NCBI GenBank assembly: GCA_041666845.1
Contig: JBAYGC010000005.1
Span: forward strand, 584-64,583
Origin: Patescibacteria group bacterium
Lineage (GTDB): Bacteria; Patescibacteriota; Patescibacteriia; UM-FILTER-42-10
DNA length: 64,000 nucleotides
Direction of reading: 5' to 3'
Each line of letters begins with the position of its first letter. The stretch's first letter is position 1. Positions 9,993-52,952 of the stretch are shown here, in pieces. A program made the position numbers and the translations under genes. The notes below the pieces were generated by a model. The model did not search any database. It was not told where the DNA came from and saw only the letters and a list, made by a program, of their open reading frames with translations.

Positions 9993-11012
9993 ATGCCAAA
10001 AAATCCAATTGGACGGTCCGATGAAAAAGACAAAGCCGCACAGGTAGCGATCGATCAGATCAAAGACCGGTTCGGTGCCGGAGCGATTATGAAATTGGGC
10101 GACACGCAAAAAATAAAAGTGGATTCCATCTCAACCGGCTGTGTTTCCCTGGATATCGCGCTCGGCGTGGGCGGAGTACCACGGGGCAGGATTATTGAAA
10201 TCTACGGTCCGGAATCATCCGGCAAAACAACCCTGGCTCAGCACATCGTCGCTGAGGTGCAGAAAATCGGCGGAACCGCGGCATTCATCGACGCGGAACA
10301 TGCGCTGGATCCCGGATACGCCAAAAAAATCGGCGTGGATACGGAAGAACTGTTGATCTCCCAGCCGGACACCGGTGAACAGGCTTTGGAAATATTAGAA
10401 ACCCTGGTGCGTTCCAACGCGGTGGACGTGGTAGTGGTGGACTCGGTTGCCGCGCTGACACCGAAGGCGGAGATTGAAGGTGAAATGGGTGATTCGCACA
10501 TGGGTCTGCAGGCCAGACTGATGAGTCAGGCCTTAAGGAAGTTGGCGGGCATTATCAGCAAGAGCAATACCGTAGTAATCTTCATCAACCAGATCCGCAT
10601 GAAGATCGGTGTATTTTTCGGCAACCCCGAAACGACCACCGGTGGCAACGCGTTGAAATTTTACGCATCAGTCCGTATTGAAGTACGCCGTTCAGCGCAG
10701 ATCAAAAAAGGCGAGCAGATTATCGGCAACCGTGTGAAGGTGAAAGTGGTCAAAAACAAAGTAGCCGCTCCTTTCCGAACGACTGAATTCGACATTATGT
10801 ACAACGAAGGAATCTCCATGGCGGGCGACCTGATCGATACCGCTCTGCAGTACGGCGTGATGACCAAAAACGGCAACTCCTACAGCTATGGCGAGGCGAA
10901 ACTGGGTGTCGGCCGGGAAACCGCCCGCATGGCATTGAAGGAAGATAAAAAGCTGATGAAGGAGATTAAAGAGAAAGTCCTGGTCGCGGTAAAAGTCGCC
11001 GAGGAAAAATAG
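9993..11012 (+). CDS. recA: Recombinase RecA
   Basis: GPESSGKTT Walker [16 protein letters not shown]2 region. Confidence 0.97.
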
Positions 11013-13037: not shown

Positions 13038-13150
13038 GGTGTCAACCCCCACACCCATACATGGGTGTGGGGGTTGCGTGTTGCGTTCCGCTTTCCAAAA
13101 AACCCGATTTCTTTAACCCCAAACCGGTTGCTTGTCGTAGCACGCGCGGT
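13038..13150 (+). repeat. R-module repeat (perfect 14-bp-stem hairpin CAACCCCCACACCC/GGGTGTGGGGGTTG, then AAAAAACCCGATTTCT...TTGCTTGTCG)
   Basis: Homologous copies occur at 17497-17545 (partial), 18727-18845 and inverted at 26110-26190. Confidence 0.7.
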
Positions 13151-17496: not shown

Positions 17497-17630
17497 CAAA
17501 AAACCCGATTGCTATAATTCCAGACTAGTCGCTTGTCGGAGAGGGTTCTAAATAATTGTGGATTCCCGGGTCCTGCCTCGCCTTGATCCGGCGGAGCGGC
17601 GGCAAGGCGGGCAAGCCCGAGAATGACAGT
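17497..17630 (+). repeat. Partial R-module (17497-17545) plus P-module variant (17560-17630: GGATTCCCGG...GGCAAGCCCGAGAATGACA)
   Basis: Shares both ends with P copies at 18864 and 25975. The inner core is divergent. Followed by TTGACA at 17637. Confidence 0.6.
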
Positions 17631-18845: not shown

Positions 18846-18863
18846 CGTTTTCTAAAAACTTAT

Positions 18864-18965
18864 GGATCCCCGGATCCCCGGCCGCCTAACTGCCGTTAGG
18901 CAGTGGGGCAGGCAAGCCCGAGGATGACAATCAAATAACAAGTCATTCCCGCGAAAGCGGGAATC
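18864..18965 (+). repeat. P-module: ~100-bp MITE-like element with terminal inverted repeats GGATCCCCGG...CGGGAATCC
   Basis: Near-identical to 25975-26098 (59-bp core GGATCCCCGGCCGCCTAACTGCCGTTAGGCAGTGGGGCAGGCAAGCCCGAG[G/A]ATGACA). An internal perfect 7-bp hairpin GCCTAAC-TGCC-GTTAGGC overlaps an alternative CTGCC-GTTA-GGCAG stem. Confidence 0.75.
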
Positions 18966-19076
18966 CATGGAATTAATTTGATGCTGATATTAGCTAAAAT
19001 TAGCCCATTTAGTATTGACCCCGTTAGAGGAGTTCCTCTAAGCGGGGTTGACAAAAACCCAGTTTAGGTGTATGCT
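18966..19076 (+). promoter_or_regulatory. Q-module with outward sigma70-type promoter (TTGACA-17-TATGCT) driving 19231..19803
   Basis: The element ATTAGCTAAAATTAGCCCA...TTGACCCCGTTAGAGGAGTTCCTCTAAGCGGGGTTGACAAAA contains a 12-bp inverted repeat and ends in TTGACA at 19048. The -10 TATGCT is at 19071. An inverted copy lies at 25866-25985. Confidence 0.6.
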
Positions 19077-19230
19077 GTCAGGTTTCATGGTTCATTGAAA
19101 TATCACTGCGTATATTGCCGTGGCGTCCAGATTAGAAAGAAGATCAGTCTAATTTGACCGCTCCGGCAATGTTGCCAAGCATGACATCCTAATGTCCAGT
19201 ATGGATTCCAAAGCCATGAAGGAGATTTCC

Positions 19231-19803
19231 ATGAAGAAGTCGTACATGACTCAGGACGACATCTACGTTGCCCAGGCGTGGAAGAGTCTGGCGAAGAAGC
19301 TGTTTCCTTGCCAGATCGTCGTGACGCTGGTCATGGTGACGCTGACCTACATCGCCCGGCGCTTCATCAATCACCACTATTTCGATCATGTGGTGACGGA
19401 TGCTGTCGCTGGCAACATCCCCAACGTGGTGATCGCGCTCGTAGCGTTCATCTTCGCCGGTGTGTTCGCGGTGGCTGTCGCGACCAACATCGCGTTCAGG
19501 AACGCACCGATTCGTACGATCACGCTCGTTCTGCTCACGTTCCTGGTACCTGCTGTGATCGGCGCCTTCTCCAGCTTCTGCTCGCACATCTATCTCCGGC
19601 CGGCGGATATCGTGTATGATTTCATTCCGGCGGTTCTGCTCATCGGGGTCTGGTGGTACACCAGCAACGCGCTCGATGAGGCCAGCGGATCGAACTTCGG
19701 TCAGAGCAAGGTCGCGAAAAGGATTCGAAACAGGATCGAGTACGCCTGTATCGGACAGTTCGCGATCTTCATGATTCTGATGGCCTACGTCATCGGGATT
19801 TAA
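19231..19803 (+). CDS. Polytopic membrane protein (5-6 TM), compositionally foreign (GC ~58%)
   Basis: SD AAGGAG lies 6 nt upstream of ATG at 19231. The track ORF starts 13 codons earlier, without an SD. The sequence is hydrophobic throughout. The antisense 211-aa ORF was rejected as a high-GC artefact. Confidence 0.65.
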   Translation: MKKSYMTQDDIYVAQAWKSLAKKLFPCQIVVTLVMVTLTYIARRFINHHYFDHVVTDAVAGNIPNVVIALVAFIFAGVFAVAVATNIAFRNAPIRTITLVLLTFLVPAVIGAFSSFCSHIYLRPADIVYDFIPAVLLIGVWWYTSNALDEASGSNFGQSKVAKRIRNRIEYACIGQFAIFMILMAYVIGI

Positions 19804-19954
19804 CTGCCCTTTTGACCTGAGCAAGTCCTAAGAAGTGCTCACCCGCCAGGTAACTGACGGGTTTTTTCTTTGCCAAAAAATATTAACCGATAATCAAAAA
19901 CAAGCGCGGTCAAACCCGCGCCTGCATTTATATTTTTTACAAACAGTTATTTGA

Positions 19955-23169: not shown

Positions 23170-24258
23170 CTAGTTATCACTTTTTGCTGAAGCTTGTTGA
23201 ATCCGCCGACAGCGTTCCAGGTGATAGTCATAAAAAACACATCCTTCGCCAATACAGCTGGTACGTGGGCAGACGGTGGCAAGTTGGTTCGGATCAATCG
23301 CTTTTTTTAAAATTTCCTTAATTTCTTCTAAGCTCAATCTGGTTGGCGTCACGCCCTCCGGTGCGATCCCGCCGTTCTGAATGCTATTGGCAGTGGTGTC
23401 ATAATACCATTCTTCCACCCCCTTCAGGCGAGCGGATTTTGCCAGTTCATCAATGCTGGTGATTTCTAAGATAGCATCTTTCTTGCGTGCCTCTTCTATC
23501 CGGAGCATGACAGCGACGTCTTTGAGGTTGATGTCGCGCATTTGCCTGGTAATCAAGTTGGTGTGTCCCGTAGAAAGTCTTTGTACGACTACATCCGCTT
23601 TAGTGTCCGGATTTGCCCGCAAAAAACCCACCAGACTAATATCATCATTTTCTACGACCACGATTTTTACCAGTTTCTTACCCTGGAATACTTCAAACTG
23701 GTCGGTCTTTTTTTCCTGCTGGAGTTTTTCCCATTCCTGCGGAAGAACGGTCATTCTTTTGCGTTCCTCGCGGTAGTGTGAAACAAAAATCGGCATGACA
23801 ATATTGATAATCTTCTGCGGCTCACTTTGGTATTCGCGGTTCAGGTTCATAATCAGGCCGGAAAGGCCGAAAGCCCGGTCGATCGGGTCGCTCGAGATAA
23901 TCCCTTTTCCTTCCAGATCGTCTCTTTTGACATAAGTAATCAGTTTCTTCAGTGCTGGGTCATTTTCCACACCTAGGAATTTTGCCACCAAAGTAGTGGC
24001 ACATTCTCCCGTGTTATCTTTACCGCCTTCCTCGGTGTGGTGGTCAAATTTTCCGCCACCCATGTCGATGAGTAAAATACCCTCGCTTTCCAGTTCATCA
24101 GTATTCCTGCCTTCCGGAACACTGTTCCAGAATTCAATCTTGCTGTTTCTAACCCCCGGGAACTTTTCTTCGCCAAAAAGCTTCAATAACATAATCGCTA
24201 CGATATTGTCCGGATGCGGACGGGGAAAGATTACGATTGTATGGATTGGTTGGGACAT
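23170..24258 (-). CDS. MYG1/UPF0160-family metal-dependent hydrolase (putative 3'-5' exoribonuclease) with C-terminal Cys-rich zinc-ribbon
   Basis: N-terminal H-P-D-N-I-V-A-x-x-LL matches the MYG1 motif H-x-D-E-A-L-A-x-x-LL. LLIDMGGGKFDHH matches MYG1 VVDVGGEYD...YDHHQ. C-terminus is CPRTSCIGEGCVFYDYHLERC. Host-like GC. Confidence 0.6.
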   Translation of the reverse strand: MSQPIHTIVIFPRPHPDNIVAIMLLKLFGEEKFPGVRNSKIEFWNSVPEGRNTDELESEGILLIDMGGGKFDHHTEEGGKDNTGECATTLVAKFLGVENDPALKKLITYVKRDDLEGKGIISSDPIDRAFGLSGLIMNLNREYQSEPQKIINIVMPIFVSHYREERKRMTVLPQEWEKLQQEKKTDQFEVFQGKKLVKIVVVENDDISLVGFLRANPDTKADVVVQRLSTGHTNLITRQMRDINLKDVAVMLRIEEARKKDAILEITSIDELAKSARLKGVEEWYYDTTANSIQNGGIAPEGVTPTRLSLEEIKEILKKAIDPNQLATVCPRTSCIGEGCVFYDYHLERCRRIQQASAKSDN

Positions 24259-24560
24259 GGGGTTTTTATACTGTCATCAAAGTAATTACTGAATGTCACT
24301 TCGACCGTAGTGGACCCGCCTCGCGTCGACGAGTAGAAGCGAGTCGAGGCGGGGAAGTCTATAGATTTCTCGGCTTCGTCTTGCTTTGCGCGACTACGCT
24401 CGAAATGACACACAGGAGGGAAGTAATGGTTTCATACATAAGTATAACGCAAAAAGCTTTATAAAAAAAGTAGGCCCCCGGAGTAAATCATCATGCAGAA
24501 TTGCAGACGAAATACTCGCGGGGGCACAGGGGTGAAAGAGCGAAACGATGCTGGCGAACG

Positions 24561-25616
24561 CTAGCGGATGGTTTCCTTCACCAGGTCGATGAAGGTCTCC
24601 GCGCGCCGGCCGGTCGGAGTGGTGTTGCGAGCGCCACCCGAACCGTTGAGGATCGCGTTGATCCTCGTGTCATAGAACCAGAGGTCCTTCGCGTCACGGC
24701 CGTCGGTGCGGTAGGCACTCTCGGTCGCGATGATGACGTCGTACAGTCGGTTCAGGTTGATCCGCGGCTGGACCCGGTTGGAGGTCAGGATGACGATCCG
24801 CTTGGAACGACTGACTACGATGATCAGGTCGACCCGACCATCGTTGAGGAGGGCGCGGGGGACACGGGTGTCGTCGGTGTGGATCAACACACCGCGTTGA
24901 TCCCGACCACTGGACTTGAAGACGAACTTCGTCGTGTCCTTGTGGTCGAGGATGTCGATCGCCTTGTCCTTGGCCACCTCGTTGGCGGCCTTGCACTTGG
25001 CGAACACCTCGCGCCACCAACGAGCCTCGCGGAGGATCTCACTGTCGGTGGCGCCGGTGATCATCAGGTTACGGATGTAGCCTGCCATACACCAGGGGGA
25101 CTCGTGGTTGCCCAGATGCTGGACGAGCGTCTGGACGTCGGGATGCCGACGGTCCACGGGGACCTTCAGCTCCTTGCCGATGCTGTTGACGTAGGCGTCG
25201 ATCACGCGGAAGATCCGCGAGATGACGGTCATGGGGGCATACCCTTGCTTGTACATCTCCCGAAGGAGCCATACGAGCGAGTAGGGCAGACCCTTAAGTC
25301 CACCCGTCTCGTTGTTCTCGTTGCAGATCGCAACGAGCGGGATCAGGCGGTGACTGCGAACCTTCAGGGTCTCGGCGACGATCTCCGTCGCGGAACCCTT
25401 ACCGGCCACTTGGTACTTGTACGGACCGATGTCGATGATGAACATGCGGTCCCGCTGCCACTCGTCGATCTGGGACTGTTCCGGCTGGAACTCGCCCGAG
25501 AGCACGAGGTTGAGGTCTTCGAGCTTCGTGACCGTGAACCTGCAGTACAGGTACAGGGCGACGATCTTGTCGAACACCGGACGAGCGGGGATGACGACGC
25601 CAGTAAACCGCTTCAT
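24561..25616 (-). CDS. Divergent, probably catalytically inactive paralogue of the adjacent MYG1/UPF0160-like protein (GC ~60%)
   Basis: Collinear with 23170..24258 (PARP/FPRP N-terminus, FIIDIG vs LLIDMG, FYDTRINAILNGSGGARNTTPTGR vs YYDTTANSIQNGGIAPEGVTPTR). It lacks both His motifs (VFD for HPD, GPYKYQ for GGGKFDHH). Strong SD AAGGAG sits 6 nt upstream of ATG at 25616. The antisense 407-aa ORF was rejected. Confidence 0.7.
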   Translation of the reverse strand: MKRFTGVVIPARPVFDKIVALYLYCRFTVTKLEDLNLVLSGEFQPEQSQIDEWQRDRMFIIDIGPYKYQVAGKGSATEIVAETLKVRSHRLIPLVAICNENNETGGLKGLPYSLVWLLREMYKQGYAPMTVISRIFRVIDAYVNSIGKELKVPVDRRHPDVQTLVQHLGNHESPWCMAGYIRNLMITGATDSEILREARWWREVFAKCKAANEVAKDKAIDILDHKDTTKFVFKSSGRDQRGVLIHTDDTRVPRALLNDGRVDLIIVVSRSKRIVILTSNRVQPRINLNRLYDVIIATESAYRTDGRDAKDLWFYDTRINAILNGSGGARNTTPTGRRAETFIDLVKETIR

Positions 25617-25865
25617 GGCTTTCTCCTTCGGCCAGAAGTAGGTGCACATGTGTCTCGGGAATCGAGACGGTCATGTTTTCAAGGAGCGGATCTCCTTGTT
25701 GGAGCCCGCGATCACTTACAGTGATCCTAGGCTCAAACAAAAAGCTTTCAGTGTACACATGGAGAGACTCTGAAAGCGCTGAATGTTGACATAGCTCTCT
25801 CCTCTGTCCTCCGTAGTGCCGCGAATGCGGTACGAAGGAGTGACAGAATTCTATGTTAACAGGCC

Positions 25866-25985
25866 AGTATACACCCAAAAGGGGGTTTTGTCAACCCCGT
25901 TAGAGAAACTTCTCTAACGGGGTCAAGACTGTGTGGGCTAATTTTAGCTAATGTTAGCAATTAATTAATTTGATGGATTCCCGGA
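25866..25985 (-). promoter_or_regulatory. Inverted Q-module with promoter TTGACA-17-TATACT pointing leftward toward 24561..25616
   Basis: Its reverse complement aligns with 18966-19056. -35 is at 25889-25894 and -10 at 25866-25871, both on the minus strand. Confidence 0.6.
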
Positions 25986-26098
25986 TCCCCGGCCGCCTAA
26001 CTGCCGTTAGGCAGTGGGGCAGGCAAGCCCGAGAATGACAAATAATACACCCCACCCCTGTCATTCCGGAATCCGACGAGAGGAGGATATCCGGAATC
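25975..26098 (+). repeat. P-module copy (MITE-like, TIR GGATTCCCGG...CCGGAATC)
   Basis: Core identical to 18864-18925 except one base. The right-end hairpin ATTCCGG...CCGGAAT is present. Confidence 0.75.
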
Positions 26099-26109
26099 TA
26101 TCTTAATCC

Positions 26110-26190
26110 GCTCAAGCGCTCCGACAAGCGACCTGTCTAGGATTATAGTAATATGGTTTTCTGGAGAACTGAACCCCACCCTTAACCTTT
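26110..26190 (-). repeat. R-module copy in inverted orientation, abutting the uvrC start
   Basis: The reverse complement (CTCCAGAAAACCATATTACTATAATCCTAGACAGGTCGCTTGTCGGAG) aligns with 17497-17545 and 18800-18845. Confidence 0.55.
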
Positions 26191-26219
26191 AGGCAATAGA
26201 CAAGTATAATTAAAACACC

Positions 26220-27983
26220 ATGCAGAAAAAACTGGAAAACATACCACAAAAACCGGGGGTCTATTTTTTCAAAGACGGGAAGAATAATATTCTTTATATC
26301 GGCAAGGCGACGAACCTGAAAAGCAGGGTGCGTTCCTATTTCCAGAAATCCGCTTCCTTGGAAATTACTAAACAGATCATGGTGCAGAAAGCGGTGGACG
26401 TAGATTATGTAATTGTAGACTCGCCGACAGAGGCACTACTACTCGAATCCAGCTTAATCAAAAGATACAAACCGCCGTATAATATTAATCTTAAAGATGA
26501 CAAATATTTTGTTTATCTGAAGGTGACACTGGAAGAGGAGTTTCCGCGGGTACTAACGGTGCGACGGGTGGAAAAAGATAAAAACCGCTATTTCGGCCCA
26601 TATGCATCCGCCACAGCGGTCAAAAACACTTTGCATCTATTGAAAAGGATATTCCCGTACAAGATTTGTAAAAATCCTCCAGAGCAACCGTGTCTGGGTT
26701 ATCACATCGGCAGGTGCCTTGGGCATGTTACAGATGTAAATACGAAGAAAGATTACCAGCAGATCGTCCAGGGTGTTCTAAACTTTCTGGAAGGAAAAAA
26801 TACCAAGATTGTTTCCGATCTGAAATCCGAAATGAAACTGGCAGCCAAGCAGAAGAGATTCGAAAAGGCGGCCAGGCTACGCGATCAGATTTTTTCCATC
26901 GGATCGGTAATGGAAAGACAGAAAGTGGTGTCCACCAAAAAAGAAAACCAGGATTATATCAGCATTGCCCGTACTGAAAGTATCGCCGCAATCAACCTGT
27001 TTATGGTACGCGAAGGAAAACTGATCCATCAGGAAAGCTTTCTACTGGAGCATGTGAAAAACCGGCCGGATGAAAAATTGCTGGAGTCTTTTTTGAGCCA
27101 GTATTATTCACAAGTTTCCCAATTCCCAAAACAGATATTTATTCCGGTGGGGCTAAACGATGCTGAAATACTGGAACAGTTCACCAAAGCAAAAATTTCT
27201 GTGCCAAAAAGAGGAAAAAAACAAAAGCTGATCAAACTGGGTGCGGTAAATGCTGAGCAGTATTTGCGACGACATGAATTGGAAGTTGCTAGTCGTGACC
27301 AGATCGGCATGAAGGCGATTCAGGAGCTCGCGGAAAAGCTGGGTTTGAAAAAACCCCCGCACCGGATTGAGGCATACGACATATCCAATATCCAAGGGAC
27401 AAACGCAGTCGGTTCCATGGTGGTTTTTACCGACGGTCTGCCGAATAAAGCACAGTATCGCAAATTTAAAATCAAGACTGTCAAAGGTGCAAACGATCCC
27501 GCAATGATGCGTGAGGTTTTGAGCCGGAGGTTTGAAAAAGTCAAAACAGAGATGAAAAACCGCTGGCTGTTGCCGGATCTGGTTATTCTGGACGGGGGAA
27601 AGGGGCAGTTGAGTTCTGGAGTTTCAGTCTTTGCGCGTAGTGGAATTAAAATCCCGATTGTTGCGCTGGCCAAGCAGGAAGAAGAAATATTTATTCCGGG
27701 GAAAAGTGAATCAATCAGGATCTCCCATGATTCGGAAAGTTTGAAACTACTACAAAGAATCCGTGATGAAGCGCACCGTTTTGCAATCGGATTTTATCGT
27801 TCAAGACACAGGAAGGCAACACACCGTTCGCTTTTGGACGAGATCCCGGGAGTCGGTCCCGTATTAAAGAAAAAACTGATCCTGGAATTTGGTTCAGTGC
27901 AGGGGATTCGTGAGGCAAGCGGACAGGAGTTAGAAAAAATATTAGGAAAAAATTTAGCCAAAAATATTAAACAATATATTTAA
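26220..27983 (+). CDS. uvrC: Excinuclease ABC subunit C
   Basis: GIY-YIG (GVYFFKDGKNNILYIGKATNLKSRVRSY), a UvrBC-interaction region, RNase H-like domain and a C-terminal HhH. Confidence 0.95.
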   Translation: MQKKLENIPQKPGVYFFKDGKNNILYIGKATNLKSRVRSYFQKSASLEITKQIMVQKAVDVDYVIVDSPTEALLLESSLIKRYKPPYNINLKDDKYFVYLKVTLEEEFPRVLTVRRVEKDKNRYFGPYASATAVKNTLHLLKRIFPYKICKNPPEQPCLGYHIGRCLGHVTDVNTKKDYQQIVQGVLNFLEGKNTKIVSDLKSEMKLAAKQKRFEKAARLRDQIFSIGSVMERQKVVSTKKENQDYISIARTESIAAINLFMVREGKLIHQESFLLEHVKNRPDEKLLESFLSQYYSQVSQFPKQIFIPVGLNDAEILEQFTKAKISVPKRGKKQKLIKLGAVNAEQYLRRHELEVASRDQIGMKAIQELAEKLGLKKPPHRIEAYDISNIQGTNAVGSMVVFTDGLPNKAQYRKFKIKTVKGANDPAMMREVLSRRFEKVKTEMKNRWLLPDLVILDGGKGQLSSGVSVFARSGIKIPIVALAKQEEEIFIPGKSESIRISHDSESLKLLQRIRDEAHRFAIGFYRSRHRKATHRSLLDEIPGVGPVLKKKLILEFGSVQGIREASGQELEKILGKNLAKNIKQYI

Positions 27984-39996: not shown

Positions 39997-40497
39997 TTAT
40001 TTCCCAAACAGCTTCTTGCGAAGCTCGTAGAAATTGACCACGATCGTGTAGAAAAGAACGTCGGCGAGCACCTTGCCCACCAGCACGCCGAGTAGCATGC
40101 CGAGCATCCCATCCATCATGATTGACTGAGAAGCCAGCATCAATGATGGCCGGATGACTGCGCTGTCAGCGAACTCTGCTGGTCCGTATTCCCAGACCAG
40201 ATTCCAGAAGGTGATCCAGGCAATCCGCCAAGCTGAGGTGTTCTCCCGCCGGTGGAGACGAATCTCCCGGACAATGGCGATGCCGTAGAAACCGACGTTC
40301 TCGCCAACCGTTCCGGCGTAGGAGATGATGATGGGGTTCTTGGTGAAAATCTGAGCAATTATGGCGCCCAGAATGGCTGTGGCCGTCCCGAGGATTTCCT
40401 GCGGAAGATACCGCCGGATCCATTCAGTAATCTTCTGCTTTGCCTTCAGAAGAAACCGTTTGGTGTTCTCGGTCAGCTTGTGCCTTAGTTGTGGCAC
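39997..40497 (-). CDS. Small 4-TM membrane protein, compositionally foreign (GC ~54%)
   Basis: GTG start with a GGGGA SD. Has its own TTGACA-17-TACAAT promoter and its own terminator. Unrelated to the flanking trpS and surface-protein genes. Confidence 0.65.
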   Translation of the reverse strand: MPQLRHKLTENTKRFLLKAKQKITEWIRRYLPQEILGTATAILGAIIAQIFTKNPIIISYAGTVGENVGFYGIAIVREIRLHRRENTSAWRIAWITFWNLVWEYGPAEFADSAVIRPSLMLASQSIMMDGMLGMLLGVLVGKVLADVLFYTIVVNFYELRKKLFGK

Positions 40498-51816: not shown

Positions 51817-52131
51817 CTAGAAGCCATAGGACCTATGGCGGAACGGGTAGTGCAATGGATTATAATCGTCGGAAGGGTCTCCCTTAAAGGGCGGGATGAC
51901 TTCGCGTTCGTACGGCTTGGGTGCGAGGTTCCCGGCCTTGCCACAGGCTGAGGGCGATTCGCGGATGATCTCCGCGCCGTGCTTGTCGTAGAGGACGCCG
52001 TGATCCCAGCGCCACGGCAGAGGGTGTGCCTCGATGGTGGCGGGCTTGAGCATCTTGCGACGGAGTTGCTTGCGCCGACCCTGAGCTGACCGGTCGCGAA
52101 GTTCAGGTTTGTTGTTCTTGTGCCTGGTCAT
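51817..52131 (-). CDS. Hypothetical 104-aa basic protein in high-GC island
   Basis: SD GGAGGGG 8 nt upstream of ATG. Arg/Lys-rich N-terminus. GC ~58%. Confidence 0.5.
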   Translation of the reverse strand: MTRHKNNKPELRDRSAQGRRKQLRRKMLKPATIEAHPLPWRWDHGVLYDKHGAEIIRESPSACGKAGNLAPKPYEREVIPPFKGDPSDDYNPLHYPFRHRSYGF

Positions 52132-52487
52132 TGCTTTTCCCCTCCGGTTATCTGAAACACAAAAACGACTGAAGAACGACTTGCTAATCCTAGTCCCGAC
52201 TATTTATTTTGTCAATAAAAAACACCTGAGCTGTTATGCAGAGGTGGCTTTTTTTGTTTTTTTAAGATCGTCCTTTTTGATATTATGAGTCAGGTATTGA
52301 CACTTGCGATTAACTGTGCTATATTTCCGCGTTCAATACTCTTAGATTAATGAGTCAATTACGGTTTTCTCTGCGCGTATTTTACTTAGAAATACTTACA
52401 GAGAAGACCATAACAAATGTGGTTTTCCTCTTTGCCGTGTTGGCGAGGAGAAAGCTTTCTCGAAAGAGGAGGCGAAGGAGCATTGTG

Positions 52488-52952
52488 ATGATCAACACGT
52501 TGCGTTCCGTGGCTCACCTGCAGCGGGAGATCGGCGACGATCTCTTCGAGGCGCTGGTAAGTTCGGATCACACGGAAGCGGTCCGGAGATTCGCCAAAAA
52601 GTTGGCGAAGATCTTGCCGACCAAGATCACGGTCGGCGGCAGAACATACGAGATTCTCCCCATCCTTCGGGAGGGGGAAGAGAGCGTCAAGGGCGACATT
52701 GTGGTCGCCCGTGCCAGGGAAATGAATGCCCATCTCGGCATAGACGACGGCGAGCATCTACTGGCCCACCGAGACGAGCTTCCCGCCGTCTTGCGCGGTC
52801 AGGGGATCGTCTTCGTCTTCACCGACTGGTGTCACCCCGAGGACCCTAAGTCTGTCGCCCGTGTCTATCATATCGGCGGCGACTGGACTCTGGGCTGGGA
52901 CGGGCTCCACTACGACTTCAGTGACGATACTCGGGTGCTCCGCCGCAAGTAA
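52488..52952 (+). CDS. Hypothetical 154-aa protein in high-GC island
   Basis: SD AAGGAG 7 nt upstream of ATG. The track ORF starts earlier but has no SD there. GC ~60%. Confidence 0.5.
   Translation: MINTLRSVAHLQREIGDDLFEALVSSDHTEAVRRFAKKLAKILPTKITVGGRTYEILPILREGEESVKGDIVVARAREMNAHLGIDDGEHLLAHRDELPAVLRGQGIVFVFTDWCHPEDPKSVARVYHIGGDWTLGWDGLHYDFSDDTRVLRRK

Follow-up and report, generated by a model that had tools for sequence, protein, structure and literature searches.

DHH/DHHA1 enzymes are generally dimers, and the well-studied non-catalytic proteins with a DHH fold are so far, to our knowledge, archaeal RecJ4 and eukaryotic Cdc45. The combination of an active enzyme and an inactive paralogue is already known in this superfamily: in Haloferax volcanii the active RecJ3 and RecJ4, which lacks the active-site residues, form an equimolar complex in which RecJ4 has a scaffolding role (PMC10470531). 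Another member, MYG1, is a 3'-5' RNA exonuclease whose DHH triad is treated as catalytic, and its mutant with DHH changed to ALL fails to complement (PMC6582341). In this study we analysed a stretch of 64,000 nucleotides from a Patescibacteria contig (JBAYGC010000005.1, positions 584 to 64,583; hereafter the window), in which two adjacent open reading frames (ORFs), A and B, encode what appears to be a bacterial variant of such a pair. What is new here is this bacterial variant together with the unusual evolution of its predicted inactive partner, B.

As with RecJ3 and RecJ4, an active DHH-superfamily nuclease (A) would be paired with a paralogue lacking the active-site residues (B), and the genes for A and B are linked and co-diverge. 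The archaeal proteins differ in being of the RecJ/Cdc45 type, with masses of 70-79 kDa, S1/OB domains and binding to aRNase J, whereas A and B are bacterial proteins of about 40 kDa encoded by adjacent genes; B moreover keeps a conserved alternative set of residues, and the complex of A and B is a predicted one. Closer in architecture are NrnA/NrnB, CnpB (Rv2837c), GdpP, DhhP, PggH and NrN, dimeric enzymes of about 310-350 amino acids (aa) acting on short RNAs or (cyclic) dinucleotides, which share the DHH + DHHA1 architecture and are top structural matches of A and B. The differences from enzymes of this NrnA/CnpB type are that their identity to A and B is 7-18%, that A and B match neither PF01368 nor PF02272, and that in A and B the N-terminal domain contains a long helical insertion and a smaller number of strands. 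We know of no inactive paralogue partner for stand-alone DHH/DHHA1 phosphodiesterases, and a literature search not aimed squarely at this point found none for NrnA/CnpB-type enzymes. Cdc45 and the archaeal RecJ/Cdc45 proteins differ from A and B in that they are components of the replisome with MCM and GINS as partners and are not encoded beside an active paralogue (PMC4873980). Neither the A nor the B family is in Pfam or NCBIfam, a literature search not aimed squarely at them found no paper describing them, and both merit definition at the Pfam level.

Paralogues with a predicted DHH/DHHA1 fold

Both ORFs lie on the same strand and are of about 350 codons, as an earlier note made from this DNA sequence had described; the strand is the minus strand, and the lengths are 362 aa for A and 351 aa for B. 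The note had also stated that the two proteins align end to end, which holds for profiles and does not hold for the single sequences: pairwise BLASTP aligned only the last ~100 residues (30% identity, E 4e-6), and hhalign comparison of the two families, using alignments of 37 A-type and 7 B-type sequences, aligned 289 columns from the N-terminal strand to the C-terminal helix (probability 99.0%, E 8.2e-18, 22% identity). At the profile level, A and B are thus paralogues homologous end to end, well beyond chance.

Structure prediction of both proteins, which the note had proposed as a check, gave AlphaFold2 (AF2) monomer models that match DHH/DHHA1 folds. The models (predicted local distance difference test, pLDDT, 89.8 for A and 89.0 for B) have the same order of secondary-structure elements, with a helical insert that is longer in B, and each is predicted to have an N-terminal DHH domain followed by a C-terminal DHHA1 domain. 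The top Foldseek matches of the A model were 6mtz, CnpB/Rv2837c, a family II pyrophosphatase, TM1595, DhhP, GdpP and RecJ, and the B model matched 6mtz, RecJ, NrN (a SAM-AMP phosphodiesterase) and a family II pyrophosphatase; the top fold matches of the two are all DHH/DHHA1 proteins, among them also NrnA, PggH, Cdc45 and the C-Ala domain of AlaRS. The best structural match for both, 6mtz, is not a sequence-level relative of MYG1 and is not named in the NrnB paper. Pfam and NCBIfam gave no meaningful match for A or B, the DHH (PF01368) and DHHA1 (PF02272) profiles matched none of 37 A-type or 15 B-type proteins even at E <= 10, and the PDB contained no sequence match for A, B or the A profile. 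Weak matches of some A-type proteins to DUF6715 and ChrB_C were dropped, being 35 residues long and below threshold. By modelled fold and motifs, on which the assignment rests, A and B belong to the DHH/DHHA1 phosphoesterase superfamily.

The earlier observation that A keeps the His motifs and that B lacks them was extended from the window, where A carries PRPHPD...IDMGGGKFDHH and B carries PVFD...IDIGPYKYQ, to 32 of 32 pairs found in the survey described below. The metal-binding motifs of the superfamily (D17, D65, D72-H73-H74 and D113-D114) are complete in A, in all 37 aligned family members and in each of the 32 paired A genes, and every paired B gene lacks DHH at the motif position. Residues invariant in the 37 A-type members are D17, D65, F71-D72-H73-H74, R112-D113-D114, D124, D127-R128, H232-N234, W284, D287 and Q294-N295-G296; the first His of the 'HPD' of A is H or Q across the family. 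The A family comprises at least 291 clusters at 90% identity that carry no annotation, and every named one is a Patescibacteria hypothetical protein. The zinc ribbon that the note had assigned to A has a basis in a C-terminal cluster, C-x4-C-x4-C-x9-C, and this cluster is kept in only 7 of the 37 aligned members, the nearest relatives, and lies in a region that the AF2 model shows mostly as helix (pLDDT 73-86).

The MYG1/UPF0160 label that the note had given to both proteins stood for the superfamily and for the motif layout of A, and did not stand for the family itself. PF03690 (UPF0160/MYG1; gathering score 22.1 bits) matched neither A nor B at E <= 1 and none of the 37 A-type and 15 B-type proteins at E <= 10, while human MYG1 as a control scored 458.7 bits; the human query had 2 differences in 327 residues aligned to PDB 24ah. 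When the A profile was aligned to this single human sequence with hhalign, the match was local and weak (53 columns covering motifs I-III, 48% probability, E 1.9e-4), and it paired H15-x-D17, D65-x-GG and D72-H73-H74 of A with FHCDE, VDVGG and YDHH of MYG1. The MYG1 layout (H-x-D ... DxGG ... [FY]DHH, with motifs II and III closely spaced) is found in A only, B having no DHH. As far as sequences tell, A is of similar size to MYG1, belongs to the same superfamily and has a very similar motif layout, but is outside PF03690 by any threshold applied. MYG1 structures (24ah and others) were not among the matches of the fold search, and they may post-date the fold libraries.

In B the metal-binding motifs are incomplete: DHH is replaced by [KR]-Y-[QHN], the two histidines having no counterpart in the hhalign alignment, and DD is replaced by NN, while the aspartates of motifs I and II are retained, as is the DHHA1-type C-terminal motif W..D...NG. 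According to our reading of the motifs, N101-N102 of B is probably the counterpart of R-D113-D114-LEGKG in A, and hhalign places it differently. A word-indexed search found 7 relatives of B and a profile search 15. When HMMER was run exhaustively with the profile of B, it yielded 281 cluster representatives at E <= 1e-3, and more than 130 of these score as B-type, lacking DHH and carrying the K-Y-Q and NN..G.LK motifs. In 15 B-type proteins diverging to 25% identity, P10, F15-D16-K17-I18, P45, W53, D62, G64, K67-Y68 and S75 are invariant, and so are N101-N102, G105, L107-K108, R119-E120, K123, Y180, W313, D316, R318-I319, N324-G325 and T335. Because the substituted positions are conserved across so large a family, a re-purposed site fits better than a decayed one, and the 'dead look-alike' of the note does not describe B well; judged by these sequences, B comes from an old sister family whose proteins carry different conserved residues instead of the DHH triad and the DD pair, and is not a decayed local duplicate. 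By analogy, since the DHH-to-ALL mutant of MYG1 fails (PMC6582341), B is predicted to lack the canonical two-metal chemistry.

Knowledge of the taxonomic spread rests on metagenome contigs and a few source names, which are Patescibacteria, Doudnabacteria, Kerfeldbacteria, Uhrbacteria, Andersenbacteria and one metagenome-assembled genome labelled 'Omnitrophica'. A scan of GTDB genomes with the B profile, made behind a narrow pattern pre-filter, gave 2 loci only. Neither family was found on viral contigs, and neither had a match in PADLOC or PHROGs.

Recurrence of the pair and a possible two-subunit enzyme

An important check was to examine whether the pairing recurs in other genomes, as the earlier note had suggested, and it does so, including in distant lineages. 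In syntenic relatives the order uvrC, B, A is kept, with 81-95% identity to the window for A and 67-80% for B. At five distant B loci (L008-L012), one of them labelled Omnitrophica and another from a contig of 68% GC, B is followed in five of five cases by an A-type gene with DHH (hmmsearch E 1e-32 to 1e-135), and a relative of B with 30% identity comes from a contig of 55% GC. Scanning metagenomes with the A profile gave 80 loci, 79 of them distinct, and an adjacent B-type gene on the same strand is present at 34 of the 79, with B preceding A in 22 and A preceding B in 12. Every B gene in the sampled loci had an A-type gene next to it. Across the pairs, the pairwise distances of A and B are correlated (Mantel r 0.70, permutation p <= 5e-4), which indicates that the partners have been largely co-inherited.

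Beyond A and B, no neighbour family is dominant across the surveyed loci. HD-like, putative NUDIX-like, small GIY-YIG-like and methyltransferase-like ORFs occur at 6-8 loci each, these clusters having been named from sequence motifs, with the HD cluster alone checked against Pfam; an HD-domain gene stands beside the pair at L008, L011 and L012. Some relatives of A have an N-terminal 2H phosphoesterase domain (PF13563; 31 bits in P0117, weaker in P0076, P0102 and P0063), and a form of A of about 510-580 aa with such a domain, which belongs to the 2'-5' RNA ligase superfamily, is encoded by many Patescibacteria. Long A ORFs without an adjacent B (L027, L029, L032, L045 and others) match the 2H-A fusions in size and were identified by length only. 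These arrangements hint that the 2H domain and B are possible alternative partners of A.

Our reading of the pair, which we put forward tentatively and hold to be somewhat short of probable, is that A and B are two subunits of one enzyme, a heteromer of a catalytic A and a non-catalytic B. In its favour are the end-to-end homology, the confident fold models, the motif status in the 32 pairs, the repeated adjacency, the correlated distances of A and B, and the precedent of RecJ3 and RecJ4. A would be a metal-dependent DHH/DHHA1 phosphoesterase that carries the chemistry, and its likely substrates would be short RNA or nucleotide phosphodiesters such as nanoRNA, pAp, cyclic or linear dinucleotides, or RNA ends; the fusions of A to 2H domains and the HD and putative NUDIX-like genes nearby suggest that the substrate is an RNA end, a nanoRNA or a nucleotide. 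B, as an ancient paralogue that has kept the two-domain fold, would most likely be a non-catalytic subunit whose part is to bind the substrate or a ligand, or to determine specificity or regulation. Because of the dimeric habit of DHH/DHHA1 enzymes, A and B would be expected to form a heterodimer or a higher heteromer, and because in this lineage B is expressed separately, from a strong promoter with a structured leader and a strong Shine-Dalgarno (SD) sequence, the amount of B relative to A could be set independently.

Several points weigh against this two-subunit reading. About half of the adequately flanked A-type loci have no adjacent B: 16 loci lack it although at least 1.3 kb of flank is available on both sides, and 8 of the 16 have long A ORFs of the 2H-fusion size, so that A can evidently function by itself or together with a B from another locus. 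The active-site positions of B are conserved rather than decayed, and B might itself be an enzyme. Finally, the high GC content at third codon positions (GC3) of B, its faster evolution and the replacement of its allele in one relative, which are described in the next section, are not explained by a heteromer alone.

The second of these points leads to a different explanation, rather unlikely in our view, in which B is a re-purposed enzyme or ligand-binder that acts alone in the pathway of A, perhaps using a different chemistry on a related nucleotide or RNA-end substrate, forms no complex with it, and is encoded beside it because the two steps are coupled in one pathway. The strong conservation of the substituted positions over more than 130 clusters (D16-K17, D62, K67-Y68, S75, N101-N102, K108, R119-E120, W313 and N324-G325), the retained aspartates of motifs I and II and the clustering of nucleotide-metabolism genes (HD, 2H and putative NUDIX-like) with the pair are all consistent with it. 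The loss of function that follows the loss of DHH in MYG1 (PMC6582341) argues against such an independent activity, and the constant presence of an adjacent A in the sampled B loci fits dependence of B on A.

Patescibacteria have tiny genomes and depend on salvaged nucleotides, and this makes A, which is conserved there and unannotated, a good candidate for a missing enzyme of RNA or nucleotide recycling. That A is repeatedly paired with a paralogue lacking DHH and DD (32/32) also offers a clean bacterial model for the origin and upkeep of pseudoenzyme partners.

Rate, allele replacement and base composition of ORF B

B diverges 2-3 times faster than A, with mean pairwise distances across the pairs of 0.74 for B and 0.57 for A. 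Within the clade of the window, identity is 68-81% for B, 81-96% for A and 77-91% for uvrC. To the co-divergence of the two genes there is one clear exception, locus L017, where uvrC and A are 92.5% and 92.8% identical to those of the window, whereas its B, which equals P0137, has no more than 34.4% identity. At the nucleotide level, similarity between L017 and the window stops at the borders of the B coding sequence, with the replaced allele at 2539-3693 of L017 corresponding to 24561-25730 of the window, and it resumes in the leader (65%) and in the terminator (88%). Judged from these borders, the replacement looks like a cassette-style swap.

A fast-evolving, exchangeable partner recalls the inhibitor or antitoxin logic proposed by the earlier note. 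In the fuller form considered here, A would be a potentially harmful nuclease and B an inhibitor, antitoxin or immunity-like decoy that is made in excess from its own strong promoter and diversifies under conflict. The rate of B agrees with this proposal, and so do the swapped B of L017, where uvrC and A are ~93% identical and the leader and terminator of B are kept, and the position of B as an insulated, strongly signalled transcription unit upstream of A. We nevertheless regard it as unlikely, and in the form stated it was not supported: A without an adjacent B at the 16 adequately flanked loci, 8 of them with long A ORFs, speaks against obligate co-occurrence, although those genomes may encode a B elsewhere; the gene order varies; and neither family has a PADLOC or PHROGs match or occurs on viral contigs. 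In addition, A is highly conserved and widespread in Patescibacteria in the manner of a housekeeping gene, and the site of B is conserved rather than degenerate.

The same variability of B could be read as that of a sensor in an anti-phage or inter-bacterial conflict system, in which a variable B senses an invader or a ligand and switches on the conserved nuclease or phosphodiesterase A. The hypervariable B with its swapped alleles between cassette-like, conserved flanks would suit such a role, DHH enzymes do serve in defence signalling, as exemplified by NrN among the structural matches of B, and in this lineage a small GIY-YIG ORF and repeat elements are located between B and A. We consider this quite improbable, because neither a defence-family match nor recurrent defence-island neighbours were found, the locus lies between housekeeping genes (uvrC and an acetyltransferase) and is syntenic across relatives, and A and B co-diverge like vertically inherited genes.

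The composition of B is also unusual. The note's description of a GC-rich B beside a host-like A was borne out: ORF A has 46% GC and a GC3 of 0.51, both typical for the host genome, and ORF B has 61% GC and a GC3 of 0.86, which makes it an outlier by about 4 standard deviations (each 0.10 among the genes) in a window of 43% GC and a mean gene GC3 of 0.46. This could suggest that B was recently inserted from a foreign, GC-rich donor and is a chance neighbour of a native homologue without any functional link. Its atypical GC3, its own promoter and terminator, the strong Shine-Dalgarno sequence in a window where only 5 of 50 genes carry such a signal, and the 30%-identical relative on a 55% GC contig would be in keeping with such an origin. 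The recurrence of the pair at 34 of 79 A loci, including distant lineages, and the fact that B in syntenic relatives has diverged along with uvrC and A, to a comparable degree at synonymous sites and with its GC at fourfold degenerate sites (GC4) held at 0.65-0.85, contradict it, and high GC3 is family-wide (32/34 pairs); we find this origin very hard to believe.

B has a higher GC3 than its partner in 32 of 34 pairs, the mean excess being 0.20 (sign test 7e-8, with pairs not all phylogenetically independent), and its GC3 exceeds that of the other neighbours by 0.225 (20 of 24 loci), while A differs from its neighbours by -0.035. In a comparison of the window with locus L006, identity at fourfold sites is 0.34-0.36 in uvrC and A, which is near saturation, and the GC4 of uvrC and A tracks the genome (0.54-0.59 versus 0.36-0.40), whereas that of B stays at 0.78 and 0.65. 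Because the GC4 of B has stayed high over a divergence at which the fourfold sites of uvrC and A are near saturation, the high GC3 is maintained and is not what remains of a single transfer. It may be caused by GC-biased gene conversion at a recombination-prone locus, by selection at synonymous sites, or by repeated exchange with a GC-rich pool; a link between GC-biased gene conversion and recombination has been reported for bacteria (PMC4450053). The compositional signal is a rare one: in nearly every lineage GC3 is raised over the partner and the neighbours, while the protein evolves faster and at least one allele has been precisely replaced. If it does reflect recombination-driven GC-biased conversion or synonymous-site selection, B would be a tractable natural test case.

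A broader and admittedly doubtful speculation would join these properties. B-type genes would be a fast-evolving cassette family exchanged by recombination, whose products serve a conserved DHH nuclease or phosphodiesterase as a variable subunit for specificity, immunity or sensing in Patescibacteria and some other uncultured bacteria, and thereby an unrecognised conflict or self/non-self module; the raised GC3 (+0.2 over neighbours) would be a footprint of GC-biased conversion, and in this lineage expression would proceed from a shared promoter-leader module with SD-dependent translation, in a genome that otherwise makes little use of SD sequences.

Expression signals and surroundings of the pair

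On its sequence signals, B is an insulated and strongly signalled transcription unit upstream of A, as the note had recognised in pointing out its own promoter, strong Shine-Dalgarno sequence and terminator; the coordinates of these and other features are collected in Table 1. The promoter (25894-25866) has 11 of 12 consensus matches, and the palindrome that abuts it (25894-25923) has a fold z-score of -7.15. AAGGAG at 25628-25623 stands 6 nt before the ATG at 25616, and an alternative in-frame start, the upstream ATG at 25649, would give an ORF 24561-25649 of 362 aa. The terminator is 88% conserved even in L017.

Table 1. Coordinates of ORFs A and B and of the elements around them in the window
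Feature	Position	Strand	Remark
ORF A, predicted catalytic partner, DHH/DHHA1-fold phosphoesterase	23170..24258	-	362 aa
DHH motif III of A, D72-H73-H74	24037..24045	-	invariant in 37 family members and in 32/32 paired A genes; aligns to MYG1 DHH 106-108
Four-Cys C-terminal cluster of A (C330, C335, C340, C350)	23209..23271	-	lineage-specific extension; putative zinc binding
GC-rich palindromic element in the B-A spacer	24295..24409	-	fold -48.7 kcal/mol, z -2.7; inverted repeat
Intrinsic terminator of B, long hairpin then U-run	24463..24525	-	hairpin 24474-24525, -36.7 kcal/mol, z -6.3
ORF B, DHH/DHHA1-fold paralogue without DHH and DD motifs	24561..25616	-	351 aa; coding constraint, AF2, Foldseek, hhalign
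K67-Y68-Q69 of B, in place of K-F-D in KFDHH of A	25410..25418	-	hhalign; B-type proteins keep [KR]-Y-[QHN] here
N101-N102 of B, motif NN.TG.LK	25311..25316	-	found in all of 15 divergent B-type proteins and in 28-30 of 32 paired B genes
5' leader of B, ~250 nt, conserved, hairpin-rich	25617..25865	-	alignment of 6 orthologous loci
Promoter module of B, TTGACA-17-TATACT and perfect 14-bp palindrome abutting the -35 box	25866..25923	-	consensus match, fold, inverted repeat

The 5' leader of B is a candidate for a new cis-regulatory RNA. Its mean column identity over the 6 orthologous loci is 77%, and 7 of its 45 predicted pairs show compensatory changes; an AAGGAG/CUCCUU hairpin predicted in it could compete with or mask the true Shine-Dalgarno sequence. 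No Rfam family reached the gathering threshold in the window, and the matches within 24200-26260 were at chance level only. A conserved leader peptide was also considered and rejected, as an indel shifts the frame between orthologues. Part of the leader recurs in other cassettes of L001 and L017.

The protein encoded by B is 100% identical to WC693_03455 of Patescibacteria group bacterium. Its frame is coding, with substitutions most frequent at codon position 3, then 1, then 2. A 407-aa ORF antisense across the whole of B (24501-25724, plus strand) was rejected as a gene: it is broken in the orthologues at L004 and L006, and because it remains open in every synonymous-codon shuffle of B, it is taken as a by-product of the codon composition of B.

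A Shine-Dalgarno core of at least 5 nt is present in 5 of 50 genes of the window, and A and uvrC lack one. Many window genes, including these two, start a few bases after a -10-like box, and among the genes that do have a Shine-Dalgarno core are B, 19231-19803 and 51817-52131, all rich in GC3. A second copy of the promoter module, palindrome and TTGACA-17-TATGCT, is at 19019-19077 (plus strand) within another cassette (18958-19870, plus strand) that consists of a leader, AAGGAG, an ORF with GC3 of 0.80 for a multi-pass membrane protein of about 190 aa (19231-19803) and a terminator. Related GC3-rich membrane proteins of about 180 aa follow copies of the promoter and leader in L001 (protein gene at 10451-10990, minus strand) and L017. 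This suggests that B and the membrane-protein cassettes form a small regulon or a cassette family with a common module.

Upstream of B, uvrC runs divergently on the plus strand from 26220, and 3' of A there follow a small membrane ORF, a GNAT acetyltransferase and a DUF1003 protein. In the relatives L004 (7269-7559) and L006 (7234-7521) the B-A spacer contains a low-GC (29%) stand-alone GIY-YIG ORF of 95 aa, at the place where the window holds the GC-rich palindromic element; a cluster of small ORFs of similar size, GIY-YIG-like by sequence motif, is found at 7 A-type loci. Further genes of raised GC3 in the window, without the promoter module, are 39997-40497 (minus strand, 0.71), 51817-52131 (minus, 0.74), 52350-52952 (plus, 0.71) and 9993-11012 (plus, 0.63). 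Short GC-rich repeats of the 'GTCATTC...GGGAATCC' type, resembling miniature inverted-repeat transposable elements, are present at 25973-26187, 18862-18930, 17497-17628 and 13072-13141; they flank the promoter modules and are seen again in several intergenic regions of the window and of related loci.

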